A stretch of 36,577 nucleotides of DNA from Komarekiella delphini-convector SJRDD-AB1 (lineage in GTDB: Bacteria; Cyanobacteriota; Cyanobacteriia; Cyanobacteriales; Nostocaceae): the NCBI RefSeq assembly GCF_014831675.1, contig NZ_VJXY01000060.1:1-36577 (forward strand), written 5' to 3'. Made by a program: the position numbers and the translations under genes. Positions 6,701 to 29,376 of this stretch are shown piece by piece. Within the stretch, counting starts at the first letter, position 1. Every line of letters starts with the position of its first letter. The notes below the pieces were generated by a model, which was not told where the DNA came from, ran no database searches, and saw only the letters and a program-made list of their open reading frames with translations.

Positions 6701-7240
6701 ATGCAGGCATCATTAATAAATAAGCATATTAATCCAGTTAACTTAAGTCCTTTTCAAAGAATTCTACTAACAAGTGATGGCACATTGACAGAAATATTAG
6801 AAGCTTATTTATTAGAAAAAATTCAGTTAGTAAAATTATCAGAAACATTACTCAGAGTTACAAAATATGTTCCAGCTTTAGACTTGGATATTGACACTGA
6901 AGTAATTGAAAGAAAAATCTTATTACAAGGCAAGATTAGTCTAAATAACTTTATTTACGCTGAATCCATAATTGTCCCTGAAAGATTAGATGCCGAGTTC
7001 AAGTCCAGACTAATAAAATCGCAAGAACCAATGGGTAGGCTCTGGTTAGAACATAGGCTTGAGACATTTAAAGAAATAATCGATTCAGCTATAGAAATAG
7101 CTGAGGACTTATCTGAATTTTTTAATATAGGAAGAGAAGACAAAATGCTTTCTCGTACTTATCGAGTTTTTTCTAACAAAAAGCCCATAATAATGATTAC
7201 TGAAAAATTTCCAGAAAGCTACTTTCCTAAAAACTTTTAA
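6701..7240 (+). CDS. chorismate pyruvate-lyase, Rv2949c/DUF98 type (predicted 4-hydroxybenzoate synthase)
   Basis: 'QRILLTSDGTLTEILEA', 'IERKILLQGKISLNNFIYAESIIVPERL', 'EPMGRLWLEHRLETFKE' and 'SRTYRVFSNKKPIIMITEKF' align segment by segment with M. tuberculosis Rv2949c as I recall it ('RILIAANGTLTRVLN', 'LQRYIILKG...FVAAESLIAIDRL', 'DPLGEVM..HIETFKE', 'RRYRVISGGQPIMVVTEHF'). Confidence 0.8.
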   Translation: MQASLINKHINPVNLSPFQRILLTSDGTLTEILEAYLLEKIQLVKLSETLLRVTKYVPALDLDIDTEVIERKILLQGKISLNNFIYAESIIVPERLDAEFKSRLIKSQEPMGRLWLEHRLETFKEIIDSAIEIAEDLSEFFNIGREDKMLSRTYRVFSNKKPIIMITEKFPESYFPKNF

Positions 7241-7303
7241 TTATAAAAATGCGTCGGGAAAACCCATGCCTTCTAGGGATAGGATGAAAGAGGCCCTAAC
7301 GCC

Positions 7304-7345
7304 GTTAACAGTCAACAGTAAACAGTCAACAGTAAACAATTAACG
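7304..7345. repeat. STRR-like heptamer array (gttaaca gtcaaca gtaaaca gtcaaca gtaaaca), intergenic
   Basis: Tandem 7-mers are read directly from the sequence, with the same CAACAGT/AAACAGT unit as at 19072-19169 and 29721-29748. The array is embedded in a 7250-7440 spacer with imperfect repeats ('tagggataggatga' / 'taggggtaagatga' / 'tctcatcccc'). Confidence 0.7.
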
Positions 7346-7531
7346 TAAAATCTCATCCCCTTTTAGTCTTTCGACTACACTCAGGGCTAACGGTGAGCGA
7401 AGCCGAACCGTTAGGGGTAAGATGAGCTTAATTAATCCCTAATTATGCAACTTATGGGCAGCAAATAGCTGTAATATATAAATAAATATGGAGTTGTTTA
7501 AGTATGTATATTGTTAACATCTGAGGTTATA

Positions 7532-9073
7532 ATGTTAGAAAAAAGACTTATTGAGGTTGTAAAAAAATATCCAGATAAAACTGCGATCGCTTATGACAAA
7601 TTAAGGATTAGCTATCAAGAACTTTATGCTAATATCAAAAATTTAAGTACCTATTTAAAAACAATTGGTATCGCCCAAGGTGACTGCATAGCATTAGTTT
7701 TGCCTAATAGTCCAGAATTTGCGATCGCCTTTTACGCTACTGCCAAACTGAATGCTATAGTTTTGCCAATCAATCCCCTCCTCAAAGAAGAAGAACTCAG
7801 CTTCTACATTATTGATAGTAATCCTAGTGCAATTATTACCAATAGTGATGGAGCAGATATCAGTCGTAAAATAATTTCAAAAATAGACAAAAAAATAGAG
7901 TTAATTATCCTTAATGATACTTGTCTACTTACTAAAGAAGTAGATAACTCAATAATTATAGAAAGTACCTCTACTTTTAAAGATGATGTGCTTTATCAAT
8001 ATTCCTCTGGTTCTACAGGTAGACCTAAAAGAGTATGTAGAACTCAAAATAACTTATATAACGAAGTTATAAACTTTACTGAAACCACTAATATATCTCC
8101 AGCAGATAATATTTTATGTATAGTGCCACTGTATCACGCACATGGGTTAGGAAATTGCTTATTAGCTGCTATACATAATGGCGCAACTCTGGTGATTTTA
8201 GAACAAGTTTCACATCAAGGAAAAACCATTGAAGTGCCATTTGTTTTTAGACGTTCGAGGGTATTAGAACTTATAGATAAAGAAAAAATTACTATTTTAC
8301 CTGCTGTTCCTTATATTTTTAATACTCTAGCAGAAACACCAGATGATACTCAAGTTGATGTTTCCACACTAAAACTATGCTTTTCTGCTGGTAACTTTTT
8401 ATCAAAAGATATTTTTGATAAATTTCTTCAGAGATTTGGCATTCCGGTGAGACAACTTTATGGTTGTACGGAAGCTGGTTCTATTGCGATTAATCTAGAT
8501 ACAAACTTAAAAAATACATATAGTTCTGTAGGTTGTCCTTTAAAAAATATTGACATTAAAATTATTGATGATGCAGCAAAAGAACTCCCAACTGGAAGTA
8601 TTGGAGAGTTAGTTATTAAAAGTCAAGCATTGACTAGAGGATATTGTAATAATCCAGAACTAAATCAACAGGTATTTCAAGATGGCTCGTTTTTCACTGG
8701 TGATTTAGGTAAGAAAGATGAAGTCGGGCGTATTTATATTACTGGTAGAAAGCAAATTTTCATTGATACAGGAGGTTACAAAGTTGACCCATTAGAAATA
8801 GAAAACATTTTGACAACTCATAATCAGGTTAAAGAAGCAGTTGTTGTTGGCATCAAAGGCTTGTTTGCAGGAGAAATTATTAAAGCGGTTATTGTACCTC
8901 AAAACCAAAATATTTGTGACGAGAAATGTATTTTATCTTACTGTAAAGATAGATTAGCTGATTTTAAAGTACCAAAAATTATTGAATTTCGTGACGAAAT
9001 TCCTAAAAGTCCATTAGGCAAAGTATTAAGGAAAAACTTAATTGATAATTTTTCAGAAACTATAAAATCATGA
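7532..9073 (+). CDS. stand-alone adenylate-forming enzyme (acyl/aryl-AMP ligase), predicted loader of the adjacent carrier protein
   Basis: The ANL-superfamily cores are present: 'YSSGSTGRPKRV' (A3), 'YGCTEAG' (A5), 'TGDLGKKDEVGRIYITGRKQIFIDTGGYKV' (A7/A8) and 'PKSPLGKVLRK' (A10). ATG 7532 is preceded by GAGG at 7523-7526; the track start 7511 is a TTG. The stop overlaps the next ATG (ATGA at 9070-9073). Confidence 0.85.
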   Translation: MLEKRLIEVVKKYPDKTAIAYDKLRISYQELYANIKNLSTYLKTIGIAQGDCIALVLPNSPEFAIAFYATAKLNAIVLPINPLLKEEELSFYIIDSNPSAIITNSDGADISRKIISKIDKKIELIILNDTCLLTKEVDNSIIIESTSTFKDDVLYQYSSGSTGRPKRVCRTQNNLYNEVINFTETTNISPADNILCIVPLYHAHGLGNCLLAAIHNGATLVILEQVSHQGKTIEVPFVFRRSRVLELIDKEKITILPAVPYIFNTLAETPDDTQVDVSTLKLCFSAGNFLSKDIFDKFLQRFGIPVRQLYGCTEAGSIAINLDTNLKNTYSSVGCPLKNIDIKIIDDAAKELPTGSIGELVIKSQALTRGYCNNPELNQQVFQDGSFFTGDLGKKDEVGRIYITGRKQIFIDTGGYKVDPLEIENILTTHNQVKEAVVVGIKGLFAGEIIKAVIVPQNQNICDEKCILSYCKDRLADFKVPKIIEFRDEIPKSPLGKVLRKNLIDNFSETIKS

Positions 9074-9324
9074 GAAGCATTGATTCAATCGAACAAAAAA
9101 CTAAAAAAGTTGTTTTAAGTGTTTTATCAAATAATATTAATAGTGAAGATTTTTCAGAGTACAGCAATCTTTTTGGCATGGGTCTGGATTCTGTTAACGC
9201 TATGGCACTAGTTCTAAAACTACAGAATACTTTTAATATTAAATTTGAAATTAATGATATTAATGTAGAAAACTTTCAAAGCATAGTAACTATTGTGAGG
9301 CTGATCAATAAAAAGCAAGGCTGA
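9070..9324 (+). CDS. stand-alone acyl/aryl carrier protein
   Basis: An 84-aa protein with 'FGMGLDSVNAMALV', the phosphopantetheine attachment motif (G-x-D-S). It is translationally coupled to the ligase gene. Confidence 0.8.
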   Translation: MRSIDSIEQKTKKVVLSVLSNNINSEDFSEYSNLFGMGLDSVNAMALVLKLQNTFNIKFEINDINVENFQSIVTIVRLINKKQG

Positions 9325-9401
9325 TAATTTTTAGAAACAGGCTTTCTTGCAAAACTAAAGACTCCAGCATATCCCTAAAGACCTGAAGAAAGAAGACTAA
9401 A

Positions 9402-12400
9402 ATGAGCTATTCTGCTGAAATAAATTCATTAGAACCAAACAAGCCAGCAAAAACAGGGGAAAATATCTGGCAAGCGATCGCAAGCATTCTCGAATTACAA
9501 AATCAAGCTCCAGCTTTGATGCCTGTATCTCGGAATAAACACTTGCCTTTGTCTTTTTCTCAAGAAAGATTATGGTTCCTTTACCAGTTACAGTCAGATA
9601 GCTCTACCTATAATGTTTCCTTTGCTTTTCGCCTTCAGGGTTTACTCAATATTTCCGCATTAGAGCATAGTTTCAATGAGATTATTAAACGCCACGAAAC
9701 ATTGCGAACTACGTTTTTAGCTTCCCAAAACAAACCTGTTCAGGTGATTTCTCCCAGCCTAAAATTTAAGTTACCTGTAGTGAATCTTCAGGAACTTCCT
9801 GAAAAAGAAAGAGAAACTCAAGTTTTGCAACTGATCAAAAATGAAGTTCAACAACCCTTTGATTTAGAGCAAGAATTACTGTTGCGGTCTTCCTTAGTGC
9901 ATCTGGATGAAAATGAATATGTCCTACTCCTGAGCGTCCACCATATTGCCTTTGATGGTTGGTCTGAAGGTATTTTGTGGCGCGAACTGACAACTTTATA
10001 CACAGCTTTTTCCACTCTTCAGCCCTCTTTCCTGCCTGAACTGCCCATTCAGTACGCAGACTTTGCCGTTTGGCAAAGACAGTGGTTGCAAGGTCAAGTC
10101 ATGGACACTCAACTAAACTACTGGAAGCAACAATTAGCAGACGTGCCTCCCCTGCTAGAACTGCCTACCGACCGAGTGCGCCCACCAATACAAACAAACC
10201 GCGGCAGTATCAAGCATTTTCAACTAGATGAGCATCTGACTCAAAAACTCAAAAGCCTTAGCGAACAGTCAGGCGCAACCTTATTTATGACTTTGCTAAC
10301 TGGCTTTGTCATCCTACTATCGCGCTACAGCAATCAACAAGATATTCTCGTCGGTTCCCCAATAGCCAACCGCAACCGTAGTGAAATAGAATCTCTCATC
10401 GGCTTTTTTGTCAATATTTTAGTATTGCGTACTGACGCTTCTGGAAATCCCAGCTTTTGGGAGTTACTGCAAAGAGTACGCCAAGTAGCTTTGAACGCAT
10501 ACTCTCATCAAGATGTGCCATTTGAGCAAGTAGTAGAAGCTTTACAGCCAGAAAGAAACCTTAACTACTCTCCATTGTTCCAGGTGATGTTCGTTTTGCT
10601 GAATACGCCGCCTGGAAAATTGGAATTGCCTGGTTTATCTCTAACTCCCTTAGAAATAGAAAACCCGACAGCTAAGTTTGATTTAACCTTGTTGATGACG
10701 GAAACTAAGCAAGGACTAAGTGGAAGTTTAGAGTACAACTGTGACTTATTTGAGAAAGCTACAATTACCCGGATGGTCGGGCATTTTGTGACCTTGCTAG
10801 AAGGTATTGTTGCTAACCCAAAAGAGCGAATTTCGCAATTACCGCTGCTGACACAAGCTGAGCAGCATCAGTTATTAGTTGAATGGAACGATACTCAGGC
10901 AAAATATCCTGCTGATAAGTGCATTCATCAGTTGTTTGAGGCGCAGGTTCAACGTACCCCCAATGCTGTGGCGGTAGTGTATGACAATCAACAACTTACC
11001 TACCAGCAGTTGAATACTCGTGCTAACCAGTTGGCGCATTACTTACGCTCATTAGGTGTGGGAGCTGATGTACTGGTGGGGGTGTGCATAGAACGCTCTT
11101 TAGAGATGGTAGTAGGAATACTTGGTATTCTTAAGGCGGGTGGAGCTTATGTGCCACTTGATCCTGAGTATCCCCAAGAGCGTTTGAGCTTTATGCTCGA
11201 AGATTCTCAAGTTAAGGTATTGCTGACTCAACAGCAATTAGTAGAATCTCTGCCTAAACATCAAGCGCGTATTATCTGCTTAGACATCGATTGGGAAAAA
11301 ATAGCTCAAAACAACCAGTCAAACCCTCTAAATGAGGCAACAGCCGATAACCTAGCATACGTCATCTACACTTCAGGTTCCACAGGTAAGCCCAAAGGCG
11401 TTTTAGTCAACCACAATAATGTAACTCGTCTGTTTGCGGCCACAGACGCTTGGTATAACTTCAATCAAAATGATGTGTGGACAATGTTCCACTCTTATGC
11501 ATTCGATTTCTCTGTTTGGGAGATTTGGGGTGCTTTGCTGTATGGTGGACGGCTGGTAGTAGTTCCTTACTTGGTGACGCGATCGCCTGAATTATTCTAC
11601 CAGTTATTAGCTCAAGAACAAGTCACAGTTCTTAATCAAACACCCTCAGCCTTCCGCCAATTAATTCAAGCCGAACAGTCAGGTTTAACCACTGGGGAAT
11701 TGAATTTGCGCTTAGTAATTTTTGGTGGAGAAACCTTAGAACTCAAAAGTTTACAGCCTTGGTTTGAGAGACATGGCGACACCTCACCCCAATTAGTGAA
11801 TATGTACGGGATTACGGAAACCACCGTACACGTCACTTATCGCCCATTGAGCAAAGCCGATTTAAATCACACCGCTAGTGTAATTGGTCGTCCAATACCC
11901 GACTTACAAGTGTATGTGCTAGATGAATATAAAAAACTAGCACCAATAGGCGTTCCAGGTGAGATGTATGTTGGTGGTGCAGGTGTGACACGTGGTTATC
12001 TCCATCGTCCAGAACTGACAGCAGAAAGCTTTATTTATCATCCTTTTAGCGAAAATCCCCAAACGCGACTATATAAAACAGGGGACTTGGCGCGGTATTT
12101 GCCCAATGGCGATTTAGAGTATTTAGGACGAATTGACAATCAGGTAAAAATCCGGGGCTTCCGCATTGAGTTGGGAGAAATTGAAGCATTACTGGCTACT
12201 CACCCAGCCGTTTGGGAAAGTGTGGTGGTGGTGCGGGAGGATGAACCGGGGGACAAACGTTTAATTGCTTACGTGGTATCGAATAGAGAACAATCTCTCA
12301 CCATCACAGAACTACGTCAGTTTTTGAAAGCAACGCTACCTGATTACATGATTCCAAGTGCTTTTGTAATGCTGGAATCCTTACCCCTGACATCTAACGG

Positions 12401-12761
12401 TAAGATAGACCGTCACGCCTTACCTGTCCCAGAGTCACGTGAGGGACTAAAGGTAAGTTTTGTAGCCCCGCGCACCCCGGAAGAAGAAATTTTGGTAAAA
12501 ATTTGGGCTGACATCCTGAAAGTAGAACAAGTAGGTATTCACGATAACTTCTTTGAACTAGGAGGAAATTCCCTGTTGGGGGCGCAAGTAATTTCGCGAT
12601 TGCGCGTTGCTTTCTCTATTGATTTGTCTTTACACCGTTTATTTGTATCTCCTACTGTAGCTGAGTTAGCTCATAACATTGAGGTGCTGCGAATTGCAAC
12701 AGAAGATGAAGATACTTTGATGATTGATACAGAAGAAGAATACGAAGAGGGGTGTTTATAA
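9402..12761 (+). CDS. NRPS module 1: C-A-T with acidic C-terminal tail; A-domain pocket reads DFWNIGMVHK (Thr-like)
   Basis: - C domain: 'LPLSFSQERLWF' and 'HHIAFDGWS' (9939-9959).
- A domain: 'LAYVIYTSGSTGKPKGV', 'FDFSVWE' (D235 at 11505), 'VLNQTPS', 'VIFGGE', 'NMYGITETTVHV', 'YKTGDLARY', 'GRIDNQVKIRGFRIELGEIE' and 'NGKIDR' (K at 12402).
- T domain: 'DNFFELGGNSLL' (Ser at 12570).
- The pocket was read by gap-free alignment to GrsA-PheA numbering. Confidence 0.95.
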   Translation: MSYSAEINSLEPNKPAKTGENIWQAIASILELQNQAPALMPVSRNKHLPLSFSQERLWFLYQLQSDSSTYNVSFAFRLQGLLNISALEHSFNEIIKRHETLRTTFLASQNKPVQVISPSLKFKLPVVNLQELPEKERETQVLQLIKNEVQQPFDLEQELLLRSSLVHLDENEYVLLLSVHHIAFDGWSEGILWRELTTLYTAFSTLQPSFLPELPIQYADFAVWQRQWLQGQVMDTQLNYWKQQLADVPPLLELPTDRVRPPIQTNRGSIKHFQLDEHLTQKLKSLSEQSGATLFMTLLTGFVILLSRYSNQQDILVGSPIANRNRSEIESLIGFFVNILVLRTDASGNPSFWELLQRVRQVALNAYSHQDVPFEQVVEALQPERNLNYSPLFQVMFVLLNTPPGKLELPGLSLTPLEIENPTAKFDLTLLMTETKQGLSGSLEYNCDLFEKATITRMVGHFVTLLEGIVANPKERISQLPLLTQAEQHQLLVEWNDTQAKYPADKCIHQLFEAQVQRTPNAVAVVYDNQQLTYQQLNTRANQLAHYLRSLGVGADVLVGVCIERSLEMVVGILGILKAGGAYVPLDPEYPQERLSFMLEDSQVKVLLTQQQLVESLPKHQARIICLDIDWEKIAQNNQSNPLNEATADNLAYVIYTSGSTGKPKGVLVNHNNVTRLFAATDAWYNFNQNDVWTMFHSYAFDFSVWEIWGALLYGGRLVVVPYLVTRSPELFYQLLAQEQVTVLNQTPSAFRQLIQAEQSGLTTGELNLRLVIFGGETLELKSLQPWFERHGDTSPQLVNMYGITETTVHVTYRPLSKADLNHTASVIGRPIPDLQVYVLDEYKKLAPIGVPGEMYVGGAGVTRGYLHRPELTAESFIYHPFSENPQTRLYKTGDLARYLPNGDLEYLGRIDNQVKIRGFRIELGEIEALLATHPAVWESVVVVREDEPGDKRLIAYVVSNREQSLTITELRQFLKATLPDYMIPSAFVMLESLPLTSNGKIDRHALPVPESREGLKVSFVAPRTPEEEILVKIWADILKVEQVGIHDNFFELGGNSLLGAQVISRLRVAFSIDLSLHRLFVSPTVAELAHNIEVLRIATEDEDTLMIDTEEEYEEGCL
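12693..12758 (+). other. acidic C-terminal tail of NRPS1 ('IATEDEDTLMIDTEEEYEEGCL'), candidate docking peptide
   Basis: A 22-aa Asp/Glu-rich extension follows the T domain. The next two ORFs both start with TubC-type docking domains, which bind short C-terminal peptides of upstream partners. Confidence 0.4.
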
Positions 12762-12762
12762 A

Positions 12763-12924
12763 GTGACAACAGTTGAATTTTTAGCTTCACTCAAAAGTTT
12801 AAGCATCAAAATCTGGATTGAAAATGATCAACTACGCTATCGCGCTCCTAAAGGAGTAATGAAATCAGATCTCAAACAGGAATTGGTGGAGCGGAAAACA
12901 GAAATAGTTAGATTTCTCAAACAA
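12763..12924 (+). other. TubC-type (beta-hairpin class) N-terminal docking domain on the methyltransferase
   Basis: The 'WIENDQLRYRAPKG...L...L..RK.EI' signature is shared with the N-termini of NRPS2 and NRPS3. Confidence 0.65.
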
Positions 12925-14082
12925 GCAAAAGATGTGATGGGCGACAAACGTTTAGTAACTGATGTCGTTCCTCAAAGAAATTTACAGTCAATATCTCAGG
13001 AAGAATGCGAAAAGCCTAATCAAATTGAACTATGGCCATCATTAGCAGAATTCTTTGTGTATGACGAGTTTTTATACTACGTTCTCACCAACGATCGCCG
13101 CAGAAATCACAGCTACAAAGTGGCTATTAATCAGTTAGTCAAAGATAAAGTAGTTGTCGATATCGGAACAGGTAAAGATGCAATTTTAGCTAGATTTTGT
13201 GCTGAAGCTAATGCACGGAAAGTCTATGCAATTGAAATGAGTGAAAAATATTACAACTCAGCCAAAGCTTGCATCAACAAACTTGGTTTAGCAGACAAAA
13301 TCACCTTAATTTTAGGGGATGCAACCAAAGTTAATTTACCTGAGATGGCTGACGTTTGTGTTTCAGAAATAGTTGGCTCCATTGGAGGAGTTGAAGGCGC
13401 GGCATTAATTTTAAATAACGCCCGCAGATTTTTGAAAGAAGATGGAGTAATGATTCCGGCAAGAAGCATTACTAAAATTGCTGGTGTTTGTCTACCTGAT
13501 GAGTTTTTGCAAAATCCAGGGTTTACGGAAATCCCAGCTTATTATACTCGTAAAATATTTGAGCAAGTTGGATACCCCTTTGATTTAAGGTTATGTCTGA
13601 GACATTTTTCCAAGTCCAGCATTATCTCCACTAGCTCGATTTTTGAAGACCTGAATTTCACAGGTATGATCGAACCAGAATATAGTCACGAAGTCAACCT
13701 CAGCATTTTAAAAGATTCAAGATTAGATGGCTTTATAGTCTGGCTCAATCTACACACTATAGAAGGGGAAGTTATTGATGTACTAGAGCATGAATATTGC
13801 TGGCTACCTGTATATTTTCCAGTCTTCTCTCCGGGAATTCAAGTTTCTCAAGGAGATAAAATTGAAGCAATTTGCAGTGGCTCGCTGTGTGAAAACAATC
13901 TGAATCCAGACTATAAAATAGAAGGTTACGTGATTAAAGAAACAGGAGAAAAAATAGAATTTAAATACTATTCATATCATTATAAAAATGATTTTGAACA
14001 AACACCATTTTATAAAACAATTTTTTCTCAATATGTATTTGAATCTAATATAAACAATTCTATCAAAACAGCAATAACTTAG
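12763..14082 (+). CDS. free-standing PRMT-fold SAM methyltransferase with N-terminal NRPS docking domain
   Basis: - N-terminus: 'TTVEFLASLKSLSIKIWIENDQLRYRAPKGVMKSDLKQELVERKTEIVRFLKQ' (docking domain).
- Core: 'LTNDRRRNHSYKVAI...KDKVVVDIGTG', 'KVYAIE' and 'DVCVSEIVGSIGGVEGA' (E-x8-E, 13366-13395).
- C-terminus: barrel-like part with 'YCWLPVYFP'.
- This matches the type I protein-arginine-methyltransferase layout.
- GTG 12763 (GAGGGG about 10 nt upstream, 1 nt after the NRPS1 stop) is preferred over ATG 12724, which lies inside NRPS1. Confidence 0.8.
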   Translation: MTTVEFLASLKSLSIKIWIENDQLRYRAPKGVMKSDLKQELVERKTEIVRFLKQAKDVMGDKRLVTDVVPQRNLQSISQEECEKPNQIELWPSLAEFFVYDEFLYYVLTNDRRRNHSYKVAINQLVKDKVVVDIGTGKDAILARFCAEANARKVYAIEMSEKYYNSAKACINKLGLADKITLILGDATKVNLPEMADVCVSEIVGSIGGVEGAALILNNARRFLKEDGVMIPARSITKIAGVCLPDEFLQNPGFTEIPAYYTRKIFEQVGYPFDLRLCLRHFSKSSIISTSSIFEDLNFTGMIEPEYSHEVNLSILKDSRLDGFIVWLNLHTIEGEVIDVLEHEYCWLPVYFPVFSPGIQVSQGDKIEAICSGSLCENNLNPDYKIEGYVIKETGEKIEFKYYSYHYKNDFEQTPFYKTIFSQYVFESNINNSIKTAIT

Positions 14083-14149
14083 TAAATACCACCTTGTGAA
14101 TAGTAGATCTCTTGCATGAATCAAACTATGAACTACTAAACAGATAACT

Positions 14150-14190
14150 TTCTCGTTATTCTCTGCGCCTCTGTGCCTCTGCGTGAACCT
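14150..14190. repeat. short dispersed GC-rich repeat, 'CTCTGCG' family, copy 2
   Basis: 'ttctcgttattctctgcgcctctgtgcctctgcgtgaacc' lies in the spacer between the methyltransferase and NRPS2. Confidence 0.4.
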
Positions 14191-14259: not shown

Positions 14260-14442
14260 ATGAATAAAAATATTAATAAAATAACAGTATTTGAATTTTT
14301 ATCTTTACTAAACAGCTTAGATATAAAAGTTTGGATTGAAAACGACCAGCTGCGCTATCGCGCTCCCAAGGGAGTGATAACTTCAGCCCTCAAGCAGGAG
14401 TTGATAGAGCGAAAAAAAGAAATATTGGGTTGTCTTGAAGAA
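14260..14442 (+). other. TubC-type N-terminal docking domain of NRPS2
   Basis: It is near-identical in pattern to the methyltransferase N-terminus: 'KVWIENDQLRYRAPKGVITSALKQELIERKKEIL' versus 'KIWIENDQLRYRAPKGVMKSDLKQELVERKTEIV'. Confidence 0.65.
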
Positions 14443-20858: not shown

Positions 20859-20870
20859 ATAAGCTCAAAA

Positions 20871-20956: not shown

Positions 20957-21133
20957 ATGGAGGTAATTTTTGTGAATATCAAGCAATTAGTATCTGAACT
21001 TTCTCAGCAAGGTGTGAAGTTGCGAGTTGAAGGTGAGCAGTTGCGTGTTAATGCTCCAAAAGGAGTATTGACAGCAGAAACTCGTGATTTACTAGCTAAG
21101 AATAAAGCAGAACTTATCTTGTTGCTTGAGCAG
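20957..21133 (+). other. TubC-type N-terminal docking domain of NRPS3 (divergent variant)
   Basis: 'GVKLRVEGEQLRVNAPKGVLTAETRDLLAKNKAELILLLEQ' has the same architecture as the other two docks but a different sequence. The upstream PKS ends in 'LEQQEIDREEIAI'. Confidence 0.6.
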
Positions 21134-24100
21134 AAAAATGCAATTACCACCGATACTAATTTACCTTTAATAAAAGGCGATCGCACTCAAAACTTACCTC
21201 TATCTTTTGCCCAAGAACAAATCTGGCTCTTGAGTCAGTTAGAACCAGATAACCCCTTTTACAACGAACTAGTAGCTCTGCGACTTCAAGGTCACTTAAA
21301 CATCACAGCACTGGAGCAAAGCCTCAACAAAATTATCGCTCGCCACGAAGCTTTACGTACCAATTTCCGCACCATCAACGAGCAACCAGTCCAGGTAATT
21401 GCTGAAACCTTAACCTTAAATGTACCAGTAATAGACTTAACAGAATTACCTGAAAGAGAAATCACTCTTGGGCAATTAGCTACAGCAAAAGCTACTCGAC
21501 CATTTAACCTTGCTAATTCTCCTTTAATCCAAGCTTGTGTAGTTAAACTCACAGAGGTAGAACACGTCTTCCTACTGACGATACACCACATTGTTTTTGA
21601 TGGTTGGTCAACAGGTGTATTGATGCGGGAGTTAGCCAGCATTTACTCGGCTCTGTGCCATAATTCTTCCCCACAGCTACCTGAGCTACCAATTCAGTAT
21701 GCCGACTTTGCGATTTGGCAACGGCAATTGTGGAAAACAGGGGTAATTCAAAAACAGCTTAATTACTGGAAGCAACAACTCAAAAATGCTCCTACCTTAT
21801 TAGAATTACCCACAGACCGTCCCAGACCAGCCATTCAAACTTTCCGGGGGGCGCGTCAATATATAGAACTGCCAATAGAACTAAGTGAAGCACTTACCAA
21901 TTTTAGTAAGCAAGAGAGAGCCTCCCTGTTCATGACGCTGTTCACAGCTTATGTTACCTTGCTTTATCGCTATACAGGCTCCGATGATATTGTAGTGGGT
22001 ATGCCCATTGCTAACCGCGATCGCTTAGAGATAGAAGGGTTAATTGGCTTTTTTGTCAACACTTTAGTCCTACGCACAGATTTGTCAGGCAAACCCAGTT
22101 TTCAGCAGTTGCTAGGTCGAGTACGGCAAGTGACACTGGAAGCTTACGCTCATCCAGACCTGCCTTTTGAAGAGTTGGTCAAAGCATTGCAGCCACAACG
22201 CGACCTCAGCCATACGCCACTATTTCAGGTGTTGTTTGCCTTTCAGAATGTACCTGCGTCTGGAGTAGAGATGACTGGTTTAACTGTCAGTCCATTTGCA
22301 GCAGAAAGCGCAACGGCAAAGTTTGATTTAACATTATCAATGCAGAACACTGCCACTGGACTAGTCGGTATGTGGGAGTACAATACTGACTTGTTTGATG
22401 CAGGCACTATCGAGCGGATGGCAGGGCATTTTGTGACGTTGCTTGAAGCCATTATTGCTAACCCACAGCAGCAAATCTCACAATTGCCCCTGCTGACAGA
22501 GGCAAAACAACAAAAGTTACTCGTTGAATGGAACAATACTCAAGTTGAATACCCCCGTGATAAGTGTATCCATCAGTTGTTTGAGGAGCAGGTAGAGCGT
22601 ACACCCGATGCAGTAGCGGTTGTATTTGGCGATCGCCAACTAACCTACCATGAATTGAACTGCCGTGCTAATCAGTTGGCGCACTACTTAAGAACTTTGG
22701 GTGTAAAACCAGATACGCTGGTAGGCATTTGCGTCGAGCGTTCTTTAGAAATGCTCGTCGGGCTATTGGGAATTCTTAAAGCGGGTGGTGCTTATGTGCC
22801 ACTTGACCCAGAGTATCCAACTGAACGTTTGCACTTTATGCTTGAAGATGCTCAAGTTTCAGTGTTACTCACCCAACAGCATTTAGTTGAGAAACTTCCT
22901 GAGCATCAAGCGAAACTTATATATTTGGATACTCAATGGGAGGGGATAGGTCAGTCAAGTCAGGATAATCTTATCAGTGACGTACAAGCAACTAATCTGG
23001 CTTATGTGATTTATACCTCTGGTTCTACAGGAACACCAAAAGGAGTGATGATTGAGCATCAGTCTTTGGTCAATTTTACAAAAGCTGAGGTAACACAATG
23101 GGGCATTAACCAAAAAGATTGCATCCTCCAGTTTAGTTCTTTTAGTTTTGATGTCTTTGCTAAAGATATTTATCCCTGCTTAAGTGTTGGCGGCACACTG
23201 GTACTGCGAACAGAACAAATGTTAAATTCCTGGTTCGCTTTGATTGCAGGAATTGAGCGTTGGCAAATAACCGTGCTAAATTTCCCAGCAGCCTACTGGC
23301 ATGAGTTGGTAACAGAACTGGCTCGAACAAACAAGAGTTTGTCGCCGAATCTACGACTAATAACTATTGGTGGAGAAAGGTTATTACCAGAAAAAATTAA
23401 ACTGTGGTATGAACATATACAAAAAAACTCAGATTTATCTAAGTTAGCAACTTCTCCCCAGCTAATTAACGGTTACGGGCCTACGGAAACAACAATTCAA
23501 GCTAGTGGCTGTCTCTTATCTGCCCAGATGTGTGATGCCTTGTACTCAATTCCCATTGGTCGTCCCATTCCTAACACACAAATCTACATCCTCGACTCAA
23601 ACTTACAAACAGTTCCCGTAGGTGTACCAGGAGAATTGCACATTGGTGGTGCTGGATTAGCACGAGGATACCTCAACCGCCCTGAATTAACACAAGAGAA
23701 ATTCATTCCTAACCCATTTGAGGAGGTACAAGGGAGTAGATTATATAAAACCGGGGATTTAGCACGCTACTTGCCCGATGGCAACATTGAATATATAGGA
23801 CGTATAGATAATCAAGTTAAGATTCGCGGCTTCCGCATTGAGTTGGGTGAAATCGAAACGGTACTAAGTCAACATGGAGATGTACAAGCATCCTGTGTCA
23901 TTGCCCGCGAAGATATCCCAGGTGATAAACGCTTAGTCGCTTACGTGATGCTGCATCAGCACTACACATCCAGAATCAATGAACTACGCCATTTCCTAAA
24001 GGCAAAACTTCCAGAGTACATGGTTCCAAATGCAATAGTCATTCTGGAGTATCTGCCACTCACTCCCAACGGCAAAGTAGACCGCCGCGCCTTACCCGCA

Positions 24101-27100
24101 CCAGATTTACACAGCGAACCCAAAGGTAAATTTGTTGCCCCACGCACACCTGTTGAAGAAATGCTGACACAAATTTGGGCGCAAGTGCTGAAAGTAGAGC
24201 AAGTGGGCATTCATGATAACTTCTTTGAACTCGGAGGACATTCGCTACTAGCAACACAACTGCTCTCACGTATTGGCAACATTTTCCAAGTGGAACTACC
24301 TTTGCGTAGCCTGTTTGCCGCAGCGACAGTTGCAGAATTAGGGCATTTGATTGAGCAGTTGCAGCAACAGAAATTAGAATTAACTTCCCCACCCATCTTA
24401 CCAAGACCAAAGGATGCAGAATTACCACTGTCTTATGCTCAACAGCGTTTGTGGTTTTTAGACCAGTTACAGCCGGACAGTGGCTCCTACAATATGCCTC
24501 TAACTTTGCATCTAGTAGGAACTCTCAATCAACCTGCCTTAAAACAAAGCTTACAAGAAATCATTCGTCGCCACGAAGCTTTACGCACCAATTTTATTAC
24601 GGTTGATGGCAAACCTTCTCAAGTTATCCAAACACAAACGAATTGGACACTATCAATTATTAACTGCGAAGATCTGCCAAAAAGCAAAAAAGAAATTGCT
24701 ATACAGCAATTAGCACAAAAACAAGCTATTCAATCTTTTAATTTGGCAGATGAACCATTAGTCAAGGCAACGTTAGTTGTGCTGTCCGAGACAGAACACG
24801 CTTTGTTGGTGTTTATACATCACATTGTCTCGGATGGCTGGTCAATGGGTGTGTTTATTCAAGAGTTAGCAGCCCTGTACAATGCTTATTCTCAAGGTCA
24901 GCCGTCACCCTTAGCGCCACTGCCGATTCAGTACGCAGATTTCGCAATTTGGCAGCGAAAGTGGTTACAAGGTGATGTACTGCAAAGCCAACTCTCGTAC
25001 TGGCAACAACAACTAGCCAACGCACCAGCTTTGTCATCCCTACCGACAGACCGACCTAGAGGGGCTGTGCAAACTTACCACGGGGCATATCAAGAGTTTA
25101 TACTTTCAAAGGAGCTAAGTGTTGCGCTCAAACAATTGAGTCAAAAAGAAGGTGTTACCTTATTTATGACGCTGTTAGCAGCATTTCAAATATTGCTATG
25201 GCGCTATAGTGGGCAGGATGATATCTGCATAGGAACACCGATCGCTAATCGTAACCGTACAGAAATAGAACCATTAATTGGCTTTTTTGTCAATACTCTT
25301 GTATTGCGTACCCGCTTAGATGGTAATCCTAGTTTTAAGCAGCTATTATCACGGGTGCGAGAAGTCGCTCTAGGAGCCTATGCTCATCAAGATTTGCCTT
25401 TTGAAATGTTGGTGGAAGCATTGCAACCAGAACGAAATCTCAGCCATAACCCAATTTTTCAAGTATGGTTTAATTTAATGAACTTGGCAGACACTCAACC
25501 GAAACTTTTTGAGTTGTCTGTAGAACCGATATCGATACCAGAGGCAGCTTCCAAGTTTGATTTAAGCTTGTATGTTACAGAACACAAACAAGAAATAACT
25601 CTGCAAGTAGTATATAATTCTGACCTATTTACTTCAGAAAGAATGGTGGAAATGCTGCAACAATTCCATCATTTACTCAATCAAATTGTTGTTGTTCCTG
25701 ATAGTGCAATTGCCTTTTATTCTCTTGTGACACCACAAGCTAGACTTTTGCTGCCAGATCCCACAACAGCCATACCACAACCAGAATACGAATTAGTCAC
25801 AACAACTTTTACTTCTTGGGTCAATAGCAGCCCAGAACTCTCAGCAGTTTGTCAAGGCTCTCGCACTTGGAACTATGGCGAATTAGGCAAAAGCTCTCAA
25901 GCTTTAGCTAGGGTGATGCTGAGTCACGGAATTGAACGAGGAGATGTCGTCGCCTTGTATGGTACATCCAGTTTTGGATTAATTGCTAGTGTGATCGCTA
26001 TTCTTTTGAGTGGCGGAGTGTTAATGACACTCGATCCCCAACTTCCTGATGAGCGTCAACGATTGATACTCAAAGAAGCTCAAGCTAAATACATATTAGA
26101 CCTTGATGGTCAGCACCCAGAAGCCCAGGAGCTATGGCAGTCTTTAACTGTCATACGTATAAATAAAGATACAGCAGAACCGATAAATCATCGCCAGCAA
26201 AGCAGTCATCCAATACCCTTGCCGGAAATATCCGGGGATGAGCCAGCCTATATTTTCTTTACTTCTGGTAGTACTGGCGTTCCGAAAGGAGTATTAGGGT
26301 GTCACAAAGGGATAGCACACTTTATCAGCTGGCAGCGTCAGACCTTTGGAATTAGTCAGCAAGACCGCATTGCCCAATTAACCAAACTTTCCTTTGATGC
26401 CATCTTAAGAGATATCTTCTTACCTTTAACCAGTGGTGCAACCTTATGTCTGCCAGCAGCAGGGGATAACTTAGAACCGACGAAAATTTTGCGTTACTTG
26501 GAACGAGAGCAGATTTCTGTTGTACACACAGTTCCTTCCTTGGCGCAATCATGGTTAGCTAATGTACCCAAAGAAGTCTCTGTGCATAACTTACGTTGGT
26601 TATTCTTTTCTGGAGAACCTCTCAAGGAGACACTCATACGGCGATGGCGAGATGCTTTTCCCCAAGCAGGAGAAATCATTAATCTTTATGGGGCGACAGA
26701 GACAACCTTAGTCAAGTGTTATTACCAAGTACCTAGCAAACCGACACCAGGGGTACAGCCAGTAGGACGACCAATGCCTGAAACTCAAGCACTAGTTTTG
26801 GGTGTAAATCATCAACTGTGCGGTATTGGGGAACCGGGCGAGATTATTTTACGCACACCATTCCGCAGTTTGGGCTACATTAATGCCCCAGAGGAAATGC
26901 GCTCTCGGTTTGTCAAAAACCATTTTCGTAATGATGACCAGGATTTGTTGTACTATACAGGCGATCGCGGCCGCTATCTTCCAGATGGCTCCTTAGAAAT
27001 TCTCGGTCGCCAAGATCATCAAGTCAAGATTCGCGGCATACGCATTGAGCTTGGAGAAATTGAAACAGTATTAGCACAACACCCATCTGTGCATCAGACT

Positions 27101-28447
27101 GTAGTGACTGCCCGTGAAGATGCTTTCGGCGAGCAAAGCTTAGTAGCTTACATCATCCCGCAGGAATCAGCACCCACAATTAGCAAGATCCGAGGCTTCC
27201 TCTCCACTAAGCTGCCACAGTACATGATTCCTTCTGGTTTTGTATTTTTAGATAGCTTGCCACTAACAGCCAACGGTAAGATAGACCGTCGCGCTTTGCC
27301 TGCACCTTCTCACATTAATAACTCAAGCACATTTGTCGAACCCCGTAACCAATTAGAGCTACAACTGGTGCAAATTTGGTCAAAGATTCTTCAACTTGAC
27401 AAGGTGGGAGTACAAGATAACTTTTTTGACCTTGGCGGTCATTCTCTTTTAGCTCCCTACTTAATGGCTCAAATTAAACAGCAGTTTGGTAAAAATATCC
27501 CTTTAGCAAGCCTGTTCCAAAATCCAACTATTGAACAGTTGGCGACAATTGTGCAAATAGACTCGGATAGCTCAAATTCGTCTTTGATACCAATTCAGCC
27601 AAACGGTTCAAACTCACCTTTCTTCTGTGTGCCTGGCGCTGGTGGCGAACCTTTCTACTTATATCACCTAGGGCGTTATTTAGGAGCAGACCAACCGTTA
27701 TACAGTTTTCAACCAAACAATATAAATGAACAATTAAAGCCAGCCACCCGAATTAAAGATATGGCTAGTAATTATATTCAAGCGATGCAAGCTGTTCAGC
27801 CGCAAGGGCCATACTTTTTGGGAGGGCATTCTTTTGGAGGCAAAGTAGCTTTTGAAATGGCCCAGCAGTTGCTTCATCAAGGACATCAGGTGGCGCTACT
27901 TATGATTATTGATACTACTGCACCAACCTCTAATGAAAGGCAAACACGTCTTGATTGTCTTGATTGGGATCATGCTAAATGGCTAATTGACTTGATCAAA
28001 ACAGTAGAAGTTGCGCTAGTAACGAACATGAATATTTCTTACGATACCCTGCGATCGCTGCCTGTGGAGGAGCAACTAAAATACGTTTTACAACATTTGA
28101 AAATGGTTAATATGCTTCCTCCTAACGCTGAAACTACACAGTTGAAAAATATCATCCAAACTTATAAAGCTAATTCTCTATGTCTAATTGATTATGTACC
28201 AAAACATATCTATCCTGGTCGAATTACGCTTCTACGCGCCAGCGAACCTCTTGGGGAAAATTATGCTAGAAAGTTACCTTCTGAAATGTTACAGGATTCA
28301 GCCTTGAGTTGGAACAAGTTTTCTTGCAAACCAGTGAATGTCGATTTTCTTCCAGGCAATCATGTGACGATGATGGCTGAACCCCATGTCCAGGTATTAG
28401 CCGAACGGTTGAAAGCTTACATCGAGCAAGCACAAGCAAACATCTAA
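20957..28447 (+). CDS. bimodular NRPS: dock-C-A-T-C-A-T-TE (modules 3 and 4, chain release)
   Basis: - Dock: 'IKQLVSELSQQGVKLRVEGEQLRVNAPKG'.
- C3: 'HHIVFDGWS'.
- A3: 'LAYVIYTSGSTGTPKGV', 'FDVFAKD' (D235 at 23150), 'VLNFPA', 'ITIGGE', 'NGYGPTETTIQA' and 'NGKVDR' (K at 24074).
- T3: 'FFELGGHSLL'.
- C4: 'LPLSYAQQRLWF' and 'HHIVSDGWS'.
- A4: 'AYIFFTSGSTGVPKGV', 'FDAILRD' (D235 at 26396), 'VVHTVP', 'FFSGE', 'NLYGATETTLVK' and 'NGKIDR' (K at 27278).
- T4: 'FFDLGGHSLL'.
- TE: 'FFCVPGAGG' and 'GGHSFGG'.
- No E domains are present. Confidence 0.95.
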   Translation: MEVIFVNIKQLVSELSQQGVKLRVEGEQLRVNAPKGVLTAETRDLLAKNKAELILLLEQKNAITTDTNLPLIKGDRTQNLPLSFAQEQIWLLSQLEPDNPFYNELVALRLQGHLNITALEQSLNKIIARHEALRTNFRTINEQPVQVIAETLTLNVPVIDLTELPEREITLGQLATAKATRPFNLANSPLIQACVVKLTEVEHVFLLTIHHIVFDGWSTGVLMRELASIYSALCHNSSPQLPELPIQYADFAIWQRQLWKTGVIQKQLNYWKQQLKNAPTLLELPTDRPRPAIQTFRGARQYIELPIELSEALTNFSKQERASLFMTLFTAYVTLLYRYTGSDDIVVGMPIANRDRLEIEGLIGFFVNTLVLRTDLSGKPSFQQLLGRVRQVTLEAYAHPDLPFEELVKALQPQRDLSHTPLFQVLFAFQNVPASGVEMTGLTVSPFAAESATAKFDLTLSMQNTATGLVGMWEYNTDLFDAGTIERMAGHFVTLLEAIIANPQQQISQLPLLTEAKQQKLLVEWNNTQVEYPRDKCIHQLFEEQVERTPDAVAVVFGDRQLTYHELNCRANQLAHYLRTLGVKPDTLVGICVERSLEMLVGLLGILKAGGAYVPLDPEYPTERLHFMLEDAQVSVLLTQQHLVEKLPEHQAKLIYLDTQWEGIGQSSQDNLISDVQATNLAYVIYTSGSTGTPKGVMIEHQSLVNFTKAEVTQWGINQKDCILQFSSFSFDVFAKDIYPCLSVGGTLVLRTEQMLNSWFALIAGIERWQITVLNFPAAYWHELVTELARTNKSLSPNLRLITIGGERLLPEKIKLWYEHIQKNSDLSKLATSPQLINGYGPTETTIQASGCLLSAQMCDALYSIPIGRPIPNTQIYILDSNLQTVPVGVPGELHIGGAGLARGYLNRPELTQEKFIPNPFEEVQGSRLYKTGDLARYLPDGNIEYIGRIDNQVKIRGFRIELGEIETVLSQHGDVQASCVIAREDIPGDKRLVAYVMLHQHYTSRINELRHFLKAKLPEYMVPNAIVILEYLPLTPNGKVDRRALPAPDLHSEPKGKFVAPRTPVEEMLTQIWAQVLKVEQVGIHDNFFELGGHSLLATQLLSRIGNIFQVELPLRSLFAAATVAELGHLIEQLQQQKLELTSPPILPRPKDAELPLSYAQQRLWFLDQLQPDSGSYNMPLTLHLVGTLNQPALKQSLQEIIRRHEALRTNFITVDGKPSQVIQTQTNWTLSIINCEDLPKSKKEIAIQQLAQKQAIQSFNLADEPLVKATLVVLSETEHALLVFIHHIVSDGWSMGVFIQELAALYNAYSQGQPSPLAPLPIQYADFAIWQRKWLQGDVLQSQLSYWQQQLANAPALSSLPTDRPRGAVQTYHGAYQEFILSKELSVALKQLSQKEGVTLFMTLLAAFQILLWRYSGQDDICIGTPIANRNRTEIEPLIGFFVNTLVLRTRLDGNPSFKQLLSRVREVALGAYAHQDLPFEMLVEALQPERNLSHNPIFQVWFNLMNLADTQPKLFELSVEPISIPEAASKFDLSLYVTEHKQEITLQVVYNSDLFTSERMVEMLQQFHHLLNQIVVVPDSAIAFYSLVTPQARLLLPDPTTAIPQPEYELVTTTFTSWVNSSPELSAVCQGSRTWNYGELGKSSQALARVMLSHGIERGDVVALYGTSSFGLIASVIAILLSGGVLMTLDPQLPDERQRLILKEAQAKYILDLDGQHPEAQELWQSLTVIRINKDTAEPINHRQQSSHPIPLPEISGDEPAYIFFTSGSTGVPKGVLGCHKGIAHFISWQRQTFGISQQDRIAQLTKLSFDAILRDIFLPLTSGATLCLPAAGDNLEPTKILRYLEREQISVVHTVPSLAQSWLANVPKEVSVHNLRWLFFSGEPLKETLIRRWRDAFPQAGEIINLYGATETTLVKCYYQVPSKPTPGVQPVGRPMPETQALVLGVNHQLCGIGEPGEIILRTPFRSLGYINAPEEMRSRFVKNHFRNDDQDLLYYTGDRGRYLPDGSLEILGRQDHQVKIRGIRIELGEIETVLAQHPSVHQTVVTAREDAFGEQSLVAYIIPQESAPTISKIRGFLSTKLPQYMIPSGFVFLDSLPLTANGKIDRRALPAPSHINNSSTFVEPRNQLELQLVQIWSKILQLDKVGVQDNFFDLGGHSLLAPYLMAQIKQQFGKNIPLASLFQNPTIEQLATIVQIDSDSSNSSLIPIQPNGSNSPFFCVPGAGGEPFYLYHLGRYLGADQPLYSFQPNNINEQLKPATRIKDMASNYIQAMQAVQPQGPYFLGGHSFGGKVAFEMAQQLLHQGHQVALLMIIDTTAPTSNERQTRLDCLDWDHAKWLIDLIKTVEVALVTNMNISYDTLRSLPVEEQLKYVLQHLKMVNMLPPNAETTQLKNIIQTYKANSLCLIDYVPKHIYPGRITLLRASEPLGENYARKLPSEMLQDSALSWNKFSCKPVNVDFLPGNHVTMMAEPHVQVLAERLKAYIEQAQANI
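27569..28444 (+). other. type I thioesterase domain
   Basis: 'FFCVPGAGGEPFYLY', the nucleophile elbow 'GGHSFGG', 'MIIDT' (Asp) and 'PGNHVTMM' (His) are all present. Confidence 0.85.
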
Positions 28448-28578
28448 GTGCAAAGATGGTTCTTTCCCTTATACTCCTACACCCTTATACCCAAAAGCCA
28501 ACTATATTGGGGGGTTTGCGCTTTACAAGCCTGCTATTTGCAGCGAAACCATAGCAATCACTGATTGGAAAAATATTT

Positions 28579-29376
28579 ATGAATAAAAAACTACCAATGC
28601 TTGGAGTTTTAGGCGGTATGGGGCCTGTAGTTACTGCCGAATTTCTTAAATCTATTTATGAATATAACCAGTTTATTGACAAGGAACAAGAAGCACCTAA
28701 CGTCATTGTGTTCTCACTTCCTTCTGCACCCGATCGCACGAGTTCTATAAATAATGGGAATGAAAGAGAATTTATTGATTTTATTCAACTGCATCTCGAA
28801 AATCTCAATAAATTGGTTGACCGTATAGTGATTAGCTGTTGTACATCTCATTATGCTCTGACTCATATCCCAGAACATCTTACTAATAAAGTAATTTCCT
28901 TAATTCAAATCGCAGATCAACAACTTCAAGAACATGATGAACCTGCCCTTTTGCTGGCAAGCACAGGCACTTATCATAAAAAATTGTTTCACGAAGGTTG
29001 TAATGGTGCAAATCGCATTATTTCTCTATCTGAAAAAGACCAATACTCAATTCATGAGATGATTTATCGAGTACTTAAACCAGGACAAGATCCACTCACA
29101 ATTCTTGGAAATATTCAAGCATTGTTACATAAATATAATACTCGTTCTTATATTTCGGGTTGTACAGAATTTCATTTATTCACAAAATCTCTCAAGCTCA
29201 ATAAAATTGATTCTATAAAAGCGATCGATCCTTTAACTACTATTGCCCAAAACTTTTATCAGCTATTAGAGCCAGCTACATCTAATTCTATTTTGTTCAA
29301 AGATAAAATAAAATTACCTAACCAATTTAATTCACCAAATATTAATTATAAAACGGCTTTATGTGAAACAATTTAA
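28579..29376 (+). CDS. Asp/Glu-racemase-family enzyme (McyF-like aspartate racemase)
   Basis: 'MLGVLGGMGPVVTAEF' is the N-terminal signature. Two catalytic-Cys boxes, 'ISCCTSHY' and 'ISGCTEFH', correspond to the CNTAH and GCTE boxes of the PLP-independent Asp/Glu racemase family. Confidence 0.8.
   Translation: MNKKLPMLGVLGGMGPVVTAEFLKSIYEYNQFIDKEQEAPNVIVFSLPSAPDRTSSINNGNEREFIDFIQLHLENLNKLVDRIVISCCTSHYALTHIPEHLTNKVISLIQIADQQLQEHDEPALLLASTGTYHKKLFHEGCNGANRIISLSEKDQYSIHEMIYRVLKPGQDPLTILGNIQALLHKYNTRSYISGCTEFHLFTKSLKLNKIDSIKAIDPLTTIAQNFYQLLEPATSNSILFKDKIKLPNQFNSPNINYKTALCETI

Follow-up and report, generated by a model that had tools for sequence, protein, structure and literature searches.

A run of cyanobacterial genes that joins a chorismate-lyase-like enzyme to nonribosomal peptide synthetases (NRPS), a polyketide synthase (PKS) and an amino-acid racemase raises the question of which pathway family it belongs to and what it may produce. 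Such a run is found in Komarekiella delphini-convector SJRDD-AB1 on contig NZ_VJXY01000060.1 (assembly GCF_014831675.1), which was analysed over 36,577 nucleotides (nt), referred to here as the window. Nine uninterrupted co-directional open reading frames (ORFs) occupy positions 6701-29376 of the + strand, as seen from the ORF list and Pfam scans. Judged by its sequence relationships, the cluster is a mosaic, an undescribed aryl-capped variant of the minutumamide/nostopeptolide family rebuilt by module mixing, and it does not reveal a new type of biochemistry or enzymology. The genes and domains discussed below are as follows, where C, A, T and TE denote condensation, adenylation, thiolation (carrier) and thioesterase domains, and KS, AT and ACP denote ketosynthase, acyltransferase and acyl carrier protein.

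6701-7240, + strand: chorismate pyruvate-lyase-like protein of 179 amino acids (aa), full-length match to PF01947 (Rv2949c-like), 66.8 bits
7532-9073, + strand: stand-alone ANL-family acid ligase of 513 aa, AMP-binding and AMP-binding_C domains
9070-9324, + strand: free-standing carrier protein of 84 aa, PF00550 (PP-binding), GLDS Ser motif
9402-12761, + strand: NRPS module 1, C-A(Thr)-T by Pfam, with the acidic C-terminal docking tail ...EDEDTLMIDTEEEYEEGCL
12763-14082, + strand: trans-acting S-adenosylmethionine methyltransferase of 439 aa, with an N-terminal TubC_N beta-hairpin docking domain (Pfam TubC_N and PRMT5/Methyltransf)
14260-17739, + strand: NRPS module 2, dock-C-A(Ile)-T by Pfam
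17742-20858, + strand: PKS module KS-AT(malonyl)-ACP by Pfam (ORF6)
19072-19166, + strand: heptanucleotide repeat CAGTCAA x13.6 in the KS-AT linker (Tandem Repeats Finder and translation)
20957-28447, + strand: bimodular NRPS dock-C-A(X)-T-C-A(Asp, side-chain type)-T-TE by Pfam, 2496 aa, MinD homologue (ORF7)
22517-24136, + strand: A3 domain of ORF7, code DVKNTGGIQK
25757-27361, + strand: A4 domain of ORF7, code DARHFSLLVK
27557-28447, + strand: type I TE of ORF7, predicted to be macrolactonising, PF00975, GHSFG motif
28579-29376, + strand: McyF-type Asp/Glu racemase of 265 aa with both catalytic Cys motifs (ORF8)

The nine-gene hybrid NRPS-PKS line is real and intact. An earlier note on this DNA, made from the letters alone, had described nine co-directional genes forming a collinear line, and the ORF list and Pfam scans agree with it; the junctions measure, in order, 291, -4, 77, 1, 177, 2, 98 and 131 nt, with the ligase stop and the carrier start overlapping by 4 nt. 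All nine genes stood, while two starts had to be shifted: the ligase most likely begins at ATG 7532, which gives an orthologue-like protein of 513 aa, and not at TTG 7511, and the methyltransferase begins at GTG 12763, agreeing with its orthologues and with a 100% identical NCBI protein at 439 aa, and not at TTG 12724. The domain-by-domain reading of that note, i.e., aryl starter, Thr, docked methyltransferase, Ile, non-reducing malonyl extension, two further modules, TE and racemase, is upheld by Pfam and the specificity codes. Every catalytic motif examined for non-functional carrier or active-site residues is intact. The HHxxxD motif is found in all four C domains (HHIAFDG in module 1), each of the six carriers retains its phosphopantetheine Ser, the Cys/His/His residues of the KS lie in the motifs TACSTS, HGTAT and NLGH, the AT displays GHSIG and HAFH (malonyl), and both Cys motifs of the racemase, CCT(S/A)HY and SGCTEFH, are present when aligned to McyF. 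No ketoreductase, dehydratase, enoylreductase or methyltransferase domain was detected in ORF6 by Pfam.

The family relationship is carried by the PKS and the terminal bimodule. Species-representative genomes were scanned with the PKS, and the resulting 80 loci were compared gene by gene using tblastn; loci are designated here by L numbers. Minutumamides are produced by Nostoc minutum NIES-26 and N. linckia NIES-25 (Ishida et al. 2025, PMC12184294) and are cyclic depsipeptides of the composition phenylbutyryl-Thr-hydroxymethylproline-Amopa-Tyr-Asp, where Amopa is Phe plus C3 with a 3-oxo group (PMC12184294). The loci of NIES-26 (L052) and NIES-25 (L027) are collinear with min, encoding [Thr, Pro-type, Phe], KS-AT-MT-ACP and [Tyr, DVRHFALLA]-TE. 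ORF7 is 75% identical to MinD of NIES-26 across its full 2496 aa, with 76% in dock-C3, 80% in T3-C4, 82-83% in A4 (against the Asp domain) and 74-76% in the T4-TE segment (residues 2136-2496), while the TE alone reaches 71-74% by tblastn against the NIES-25 and NIES-26 loci. A3 is only 60% identical to the Tyr domain of MinD, which is the background level, and its core has therefore been swapped. The KS-AT region of ORF6 is 84% identical to MinC in L052 and L027 and 84.5% identical to the PKS of the nostopeptolide-type loci L015 and L017, whose codes (Ser, Pro, Leu, then the PKS, then Leu, Gly, Asn) match nostopeptolide; ORF6 contains nothing that corresponds to the C-methyltransferase (cMT) region of MinC.

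The likeness to minutumamide extends to an early Thr module, to the extension of an amino acid by a non-reducing KS-AT-ACP into a 4-amino-3-oxo acid, and to a terminal bimodule C-A-T-C-A(Asp)-T-TE, for which the product offers a precedent of a lactone between the Thr hydroxyl and the Asp side chain. In the supplement to that work, the Asp is L-configured, and reduction with LiBH4 showed its side-chain carbonyl to be esterified to the Thr hydroxyl (PMC12184294). The window differs in several respects. The phenylbutyrate starter is made by the polyketide synthase MinA, whereas the window has the lyase, ligase and carrier and no PKS upstream; its C1 domain is unrelated to the Min C domains (~56% identity); and it has neither a hydroxymethylproline module nor a Pro-type A code. 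Ile takes the place of Phe, the PKS is without the cMT that provides the 2-methyl of Amopa, and the swapped A3 core is not of the Tyr type. In addition, the window contains a McyF-type racemase, an altered A4 pocket and a docked methyltransferase, its predicted ring is one residue smaller, and it has no ABC transporter. The Zn-dehydrogenase and the WelO5-like protein of L052 have no tblastn match in the window. Two other interpretations of the relatives were rejected, as the 272-aa gene after minD, considered as a NosF-type reductase, is a WelO5-like oxygenase by Pfam, and the idea that the KS-AT-cMT relatives make a carmaphycin-like epoxyketone was dropped in view of their downstream C-A-T-C-A-T-TE genes and the minutumamide paper.

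Nostopeptolide had been listed in the earlier note among the pathways whose layout does not match; the gene order does indeed differ, yet the PKS shares 84% identity with that of nostopeptolide-type clusters. As in NosB and NosC, an internal KS-AT-ACP gives an acetate-extended, unreduced amino-acid unit, and the megasynthases are linked via TubC-type docking domains. In contrast, nostopeptolide contains nine amino acids, a butyrate starter, methylproline genes and a Tyr-Pro-TE termination, and lacks an aryl cap, Asp, a racemase and a trans methyltransferase. The description of the line as an orphan applies only in a narrow sense: the searched literature (very recent or subscription-only papers aside) assigns no product to precisely this architecture, yet the line is kin to a known family. 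Neither hydroxybenzoate, chorismate nor racemase is mentioned in the minutumamide paper or its supplement (PMC12184294), so that the paper does not cover the aryl-capped variant. Cyanobacterial cis-AT NRPS-PKS lines have been proposed to evolve by mixing blocks among clusters (PMC12184294), and this cluster is a further, undescribed case, in which at least four foreign inserts, a low-GC aryl cassette, a docked methyltransferase, a swapped A3 and a racemase shared with microcystin clusters, surround a conserved MinC/MinD core.

The amino acids selected by the line were read from the Stachelhaus positions by alignment to GrsA-PheA, using a reference sequence that reproduces DAWTIAAICK. The code of A1, DFWNIGMVHK, corresponds to Thr, and that of A2, DAFFLGVTFK, to Ile, with a Val-type code in the Scytonema orthologue. 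The A3 pocket region occurs solely in six related clusters; its next relatives are 46-49% identical and carry Glu at position 239, where A3 has Lys, and the residue activated, X, is possibly anionic. A literature search with the Stachelhaus strings returned zero papers. Concerning stereochemistry, C1 and C4 rank with LCL structures (TycC5-6, 288-302 bits), ahead of DCL structures (SrfA-C/McyB, 134-165 bits) and starter C domains (~54-62 bits). As C4 is LCL-like, X is expected to be an L residue, and the D residue would be the last one.

This last residue, Y, is assigned as Asp, probably D-configured and linked through its side chain, as suggested by the combination of A4 and the racemase. ORF8 matches crystallised McyF (PDB 5WXX) with E = 3e-115, 387 bits and ~78% identity. 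Its homologues form a tight clade at >=68% identity, after which the values drop to <=59%, and this clade holds the racemases of the orthologous clusters together with those beside mcyE/mcyI in genuine microcystin loci, to which ORF8 is 71-81% identical. McyF is an aspartate racemase, and the D-Asp/MeAsp and D-Glu of microcystin are iso-linked (PMC6950048). The parallel with microcystin is thus a free racemase supplying a D-dicarboxylic amino acid that is incorporated via its side-chain carboxyl; the window differs in having no Adda PKS, McyE, McyI, McyJ or McyH genes and in a racemase that follows a MinD-like NRPS, in contrast with L088-L090 and L093. The A domain for iso-D-Glu in McyE reads DPRHSGVVGK in three mcyE genes and shares Asp235/Arg239/His278 with A4, while overall identity is only 30%, and the likeness of the pockets may therefore be convergent or ancient. 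Taken together with the chemistry of minutumamide, this pair of pockets makes side-chain activation of Asp the best reading for A4. The DARHFSLLV-type code is found in four clusters, all with a racemase (the window, L068, L072 and L091), whereas nine clusters carry the DVRHFALLA-type code and no racemase was detected within their fetched loci; from this co-occurrence, use of D-Asp is inferred here. A search for A4 homologues returned only unnamed fragments and no link of A4 to McyB. The pocket D-[V/A/P]-R-H-F-x-L-x-x-K marks a widespread clade of A domains, often free-standing as A-T (~630 aa) or A-T-TE (~890 aa) proteins, in Acidobacteriota, Deltaproteobacteria, Planctomycetota, Chloroflexi and cyanobacteria. 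Should all members activate the side chain of Asp, they would represent an under-recognised class of building block.

Based on these comparisons, a minutumamide-type line giving an aryl-capped Thr/Asp depsipeptide is considered reasonably probable; the chemistry of each step is deduced, and what the analysis establishes are the relationships between sequences. The chorismate-lyase-like enzyme would provide 4-hydroxybenzoate, which the free-standing ligase would adenylate and load onto the 84-aa carrier, and C1 would join the aryl unit to Thr on module 1. The methyltransferase would dock on the acidic tail of module 1 and act on a side-chain hydroxyl while the intermediate is bound to T1; the phenol is the most likely site, and its methylation would yield a 4-methoxybenzoyl group. 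Module 2 would then add Ile, and the NosB/MinC-like KS-AT-ACP would add malonate with neither reduction nor C-methylation, resulting in a 4-amino-5-methyl-3-oxoheptanoyl unit. ORF7 would add X followed by Asp, which the McyF-type racemase would supply in the D form and which, like the Asp of minutumamide, would be activated at the side-chain carboxyl, before the MinD-like TE links the Thr hydroxyl to the beta-carbonyl of Asp by an ester. The predicted product is 4-hydroxy- or 4-methoxybenzoyl-Thr-(Ile+C2, 3-oxo)-X-D-isoAsp, which would be a cyclic depsipeptide with a ring of 16 members that leaves the alpha-carboxylate free and bears an N-aroyl side chain. The skeleton sketched in the earlier note, including its cyclisation onto the Thr hydroxyl, agrees with minutumamide as the closest characterised pathway.

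Several points weigh against this scheme. The lyase is assigned at the level of its Pfam family, far below the equivalog cut-off of NCBIfam, the PDB relatives of the ligase are generic acyl- or aryl-CoA ligases from which the substrate is not readable, and the code of A3 has no recognisable assignment. C2 carries HHxxxDA instead of HHxxxDG; its motif is HHIIIDA and those of its orthologues are HHIITDG and HHIITDA, so that the last position is variable. Scans for promoters and terminators gave the number expected from shuffled sequence and were uninformative, and the ABC transporter that follows the racemase in related clusters has no match anywhere in the window. Finally, the target of the methyltransferase is ambiguous, with related domains found in modules of the Tyr type, the Gln type and unassigned code (as read by eye), and a ColG-type relative O-methylates Ser.

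The last of these points underlies the alternative that survives best, though it is still unlikely, namely that the methyltransferase O-methylates Thr and the TE frees a linear acid, 4-hydroxybenzoyl-Thr(OMe)-(Ile+C2)-X-Asp. The best PDB matches of the methyltransferase are PRMT6/CARM1, along with the docking domain of AerJ (8AQQ) over its N-terminal 54 aa, and its TubC_N domain is recognised as PF18563 with 71 bits. This docking domain shares 66% identity with its counterpart on module 2 and only 30% with the one on ORF7, and the methyltransferase and module 2 should therefore both bind the acidic tail of module 1. Like AerJ and other trans-acting TubC_N tailoring enzymes, it combines an N-terminal TubC_N domain on a non-megasynthase enzyme with an acidic tail on the upstream carrier protein. 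Most of its homologues are domains that interrupt NRPS A domains between motifs A8 and A9; it differs from such embedded PRMT-like domains in being a separate protein equipped with a copy of the docking domain of the next NRPS. Docking at the Thr module speaks for methylation of Thr, as does the a8-a9 position of the embedded homologues, which is typical of side-chain O-methyltransferase domains. One of these homologues stands in tandem with a classical N-methyltransferase, which argues for methylation of a side chain over the backbone. Besides the Ser O-methylation of the ColG type, O-methyl-Thr is known from Nostocales lipopeptides. On the other hand, methylation of Thr would block the proposed lactone, and the T4-TE segment is closely similar to that of MinD, whose TE takes the Thr hydroxyl as its nucleophile. 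The nearest embedded homologues (63-65%) lie within the Tyr-activating modules of min-like clusters, i.e., where they would act on phenols. Moreover, in L003 and L041 an FkbM-type methyltransferase is embedded in the Ser module that follows, and if the Thr hydroxyl were methylated as well, no aliphatic hydroxyl would be left for a ring. Since the MinD-like TE needs the Thr hydroxyl, the phenol is the favoured target, with somewhat better than even expectation, and the Thr hydroxyl a clearly weaker candidate.

Related loci display further arrangements of such domains. In the min-like or related loci L026, L067 (~8.7 kb) and L054 (~4.0 kb), a homologue of the methyltransferase (63-65%) is embedded in a Tyr-activating module, which in L026 and L067 stands directly before the PKS and suggests keto-acid congeners derived from O-methyl-Tyr. 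L003 and L041 carry the aryl-Thr-methyltransferase head followed by the Ser module with its FkbM-type (PF05050) domain, implying two O-methylations per product.

Returning to the phenol as the preferred target, the aryl group itself would come from the starter cassette, where 4-hydroxybenzoate made by the PF01947 lyase is the presumed starter. It is quite improbable that the ligase and carrier instead load another acid (fatty, benzoic or another aryl acid) and that the starter unit does not originate from the PF01947 protein. Such a role would fit the best scores of the ligase, which are to fatty-acyl, oxalyl and coumaroyl-CoA ligases, and the lyase reaches only 36 bits against the NCBIfam model of the cyanobacterial chorismate lyase, where the cut-off is 175; its best PDB match is the hypothetical protein 2NWI, UbiC was not matched in a PDB sequence search, and no entry identical to the lyase protein was found by exact look-up. 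The low score indicates a paralogue of the housekeeping chorismate lyase. On the other side, the protein aligns with PF01947 over its whole length and clears the threshold by a wide margin. Ala in place of Asp at position 235 of the ligase indicates that its substrate is not an alpha-amino acid. The conservation of the genes as a group also speaks against another acid. The lyase adjoins the adenylating ligase and the carrier and is co-conserved with both in L001, L003, L006 and L072, the trio is kept as a unit in relatives, and lyase, ligase, carrier and module 1 occur together in at least seven genomes; ligase orthologues are 82-87% identical. The guanine-cytosine (GC) content of the three genes is 28-31% (30% in the lyase) compared to 40-43% in the megasynthases, which is consistent with a single acquired cassette. 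Distinct GC values are also seen in the racemase (33%) and the methyltransferase (36%), consistent with separate origins.

A lyase with a ligase and a carrier is an established arrangement for priming with 4-hydroxybenzoate, as in mycobacterial Rv2949c/FadD22 and Ab5/Ab6/Ab8 of ambigol in Fischerella. These lines resemble the window, by description, in a PF01947 lyase adjoining an adenylating ligase and a carrier, and differ in that the aryl thioester of the window would feed an NRPS C domain and not a PKS or halogenase/phenol-coupling chemistry. In the window this C domain, C1, ranks as LCL-type against PDB structures (TycC 302 bits, SrfA-C 134, starter C ~54). The gene for module 1 is 81-87% identical among clusters with the aryl starter, in contrast to the low identity of C1 to Min C domains. 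A literature search combining chorismate lyase or hydroxybenzoate with cyanobacterial NRPS, and one for Komarekiella clusters, found no relevant pathway.

The full line is conserved beyond Komarekiella. Nostoc sp. MG11 (L068) and Scytonema sp. NIES-4073 (L072) display an identical gene order from the ligase to the racemase, with 79-92% identity per gene (70-81% for the small carrier), and their loci start at or inside the lyase gene. In L091, a further Nostoc sp. assembly, the layout agrees from module 2 through to the racemase, while Nostoc JTS-RE202 (L008) and L092 hold partly fragmented copies. These two copies (L008 6692-13445 and L092 1-9901) are split into several ORFs across the A4 region or along their whole length, which may be decay or an error of metagenome assembly. 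A larger set of loci has the lyase-ligase-carrier-Thr module-methyltransferase head and then diverges, with two NRPS modules and a KS-AT-cMT-ACP PKS coming next in Tolypothrix NIES-4075, Stigonema and other Nostoc. The PKS and terminal bimodule are in turn common to many Nostocales loci.

Of five related clusters checked, four (L068, L072, L008 and L091) have an ABC transporter gene behind the racemase. When 29376-30148 was compared with L068 21997-23421, L072 22408-23484 and L091 10908-12719, only an ORF for a DUF1392 fragment (29436-29735) and a heptamer repeat were found in this interval, and no such transporter anywhere in the window. The earlier description of the cluster as complete thus applies to the assembly line itself and does not extend to this exporter. 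There is accordingly a small chance that the cluster is silent or decaying after loss of its exporter and may make nothing, to which the fragmented copies in L008 and L092 and the heptamer repeats of the PKS linker, which could shift the frame, would also point. However, all nine ORFs are uninterrupted and of orthologue length with their checked catalytic motifs intact, an MFS transporter is encoded 3 kb downstream, and fragmentation in metagenome-assembled genomes may be an artefact of assembly. That the line is isolated from, and matches none of, the characterised cyanobacterial pathways, as the earlier note had it from a gene order unlike any pathway it named and as a starter cassette and A3 with no characterised counterpart found might suggest, is practically untenable and ruled out by the 75% full-length identity to MinD, 84% to the MinC/NosB-type PKS and 78% to McyF, together with orthologous clusters in three more genomes and partial or fragmented copies in two others.

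The cluster yields two concrete rules of interest for engineering, both testable. First, a difference of three residues in the A4 pocket correlates with the supply of L- or D-Asp; second, a duplicated docking domain appears to steer a tailoring enzyme to one carrier, and a free methyltransferase would reach a single carrier by copying the docking domain of the next module. It could tentatively be proposed, as a combination that is rather less likely to hold in full than the line itself, that an L-Asp module of the minutumamide type was switched to D-Asp by recruitment of McyF together with V236A, A301S and A331V, that the methyltransferase uses such docking mimicry, and that a new depsipeptide results. 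The product would combine a 16-membered depsipeptide ring and its D-isoAsp lactone with an aroyl cap and an electrophilic gamma-amino-beta-keto amide, a plausible protease-directed scaffold. The cluster points to a metabolite that is yet to be isolated and that may be sought in the culture-collection strain Scytonema sp. NIES-4073.

Several other genes and repeats are found in the vicinity. To the right, 30148-36568 on the - strand holds a convergent second cluster cut by the contig end, with an NRPS ending in ...C-A-T-TE (unassigned code DAHTITQVVK), the MFS transporter, a protein similar to Asp/Asn beta-hydroxylase (AspH-type) and a PhyH/ectoine-hydroxylase-like dioxygenase, and a terminator-like hairpin lies at 30129-30112. 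This NRPS, the hydroxylases and the MFS transporter were rejected as members of the cluster, as none of them adjoin the orthologous clusters. Upstream, 218-4787 encodes a NodS-like methyltransferase, a GT2 glycosyltransferase, a GNAT acetyltransferase and an ATP-grasp protein that resembles the L-Asp--L-Met ligase LdmS (99 bits, under the cut-off). The upstream genes, including a short-chain dehydrogenase/reductase (SDR) similar to protochlorophyllide reductase, are not conserved beside the relatives.

Heptanucleotide repeats resembling short tandemly repeated repetitive (STRR) sequences are located at 19072-19166, 7307-7349 and 29721-29754. The repeat in the PKS linker, CAGTCAA x13.6, is in frame and encodes (QSTVNSK)n, and a change in copy number that is not a multiple of three units would cause a frameshift; in-gene heptamer runs are also seen in MinC and related PKS genes (L052 11693-11722 and L027 11696-11727). 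Finally, the 870-nt gap upstream of the lyase contains dense tandem repeats of 9 nt (CTTAACTGT) and 51/60 nt at 6302-6451, which give rise to a spurious ORF of 63 aa.

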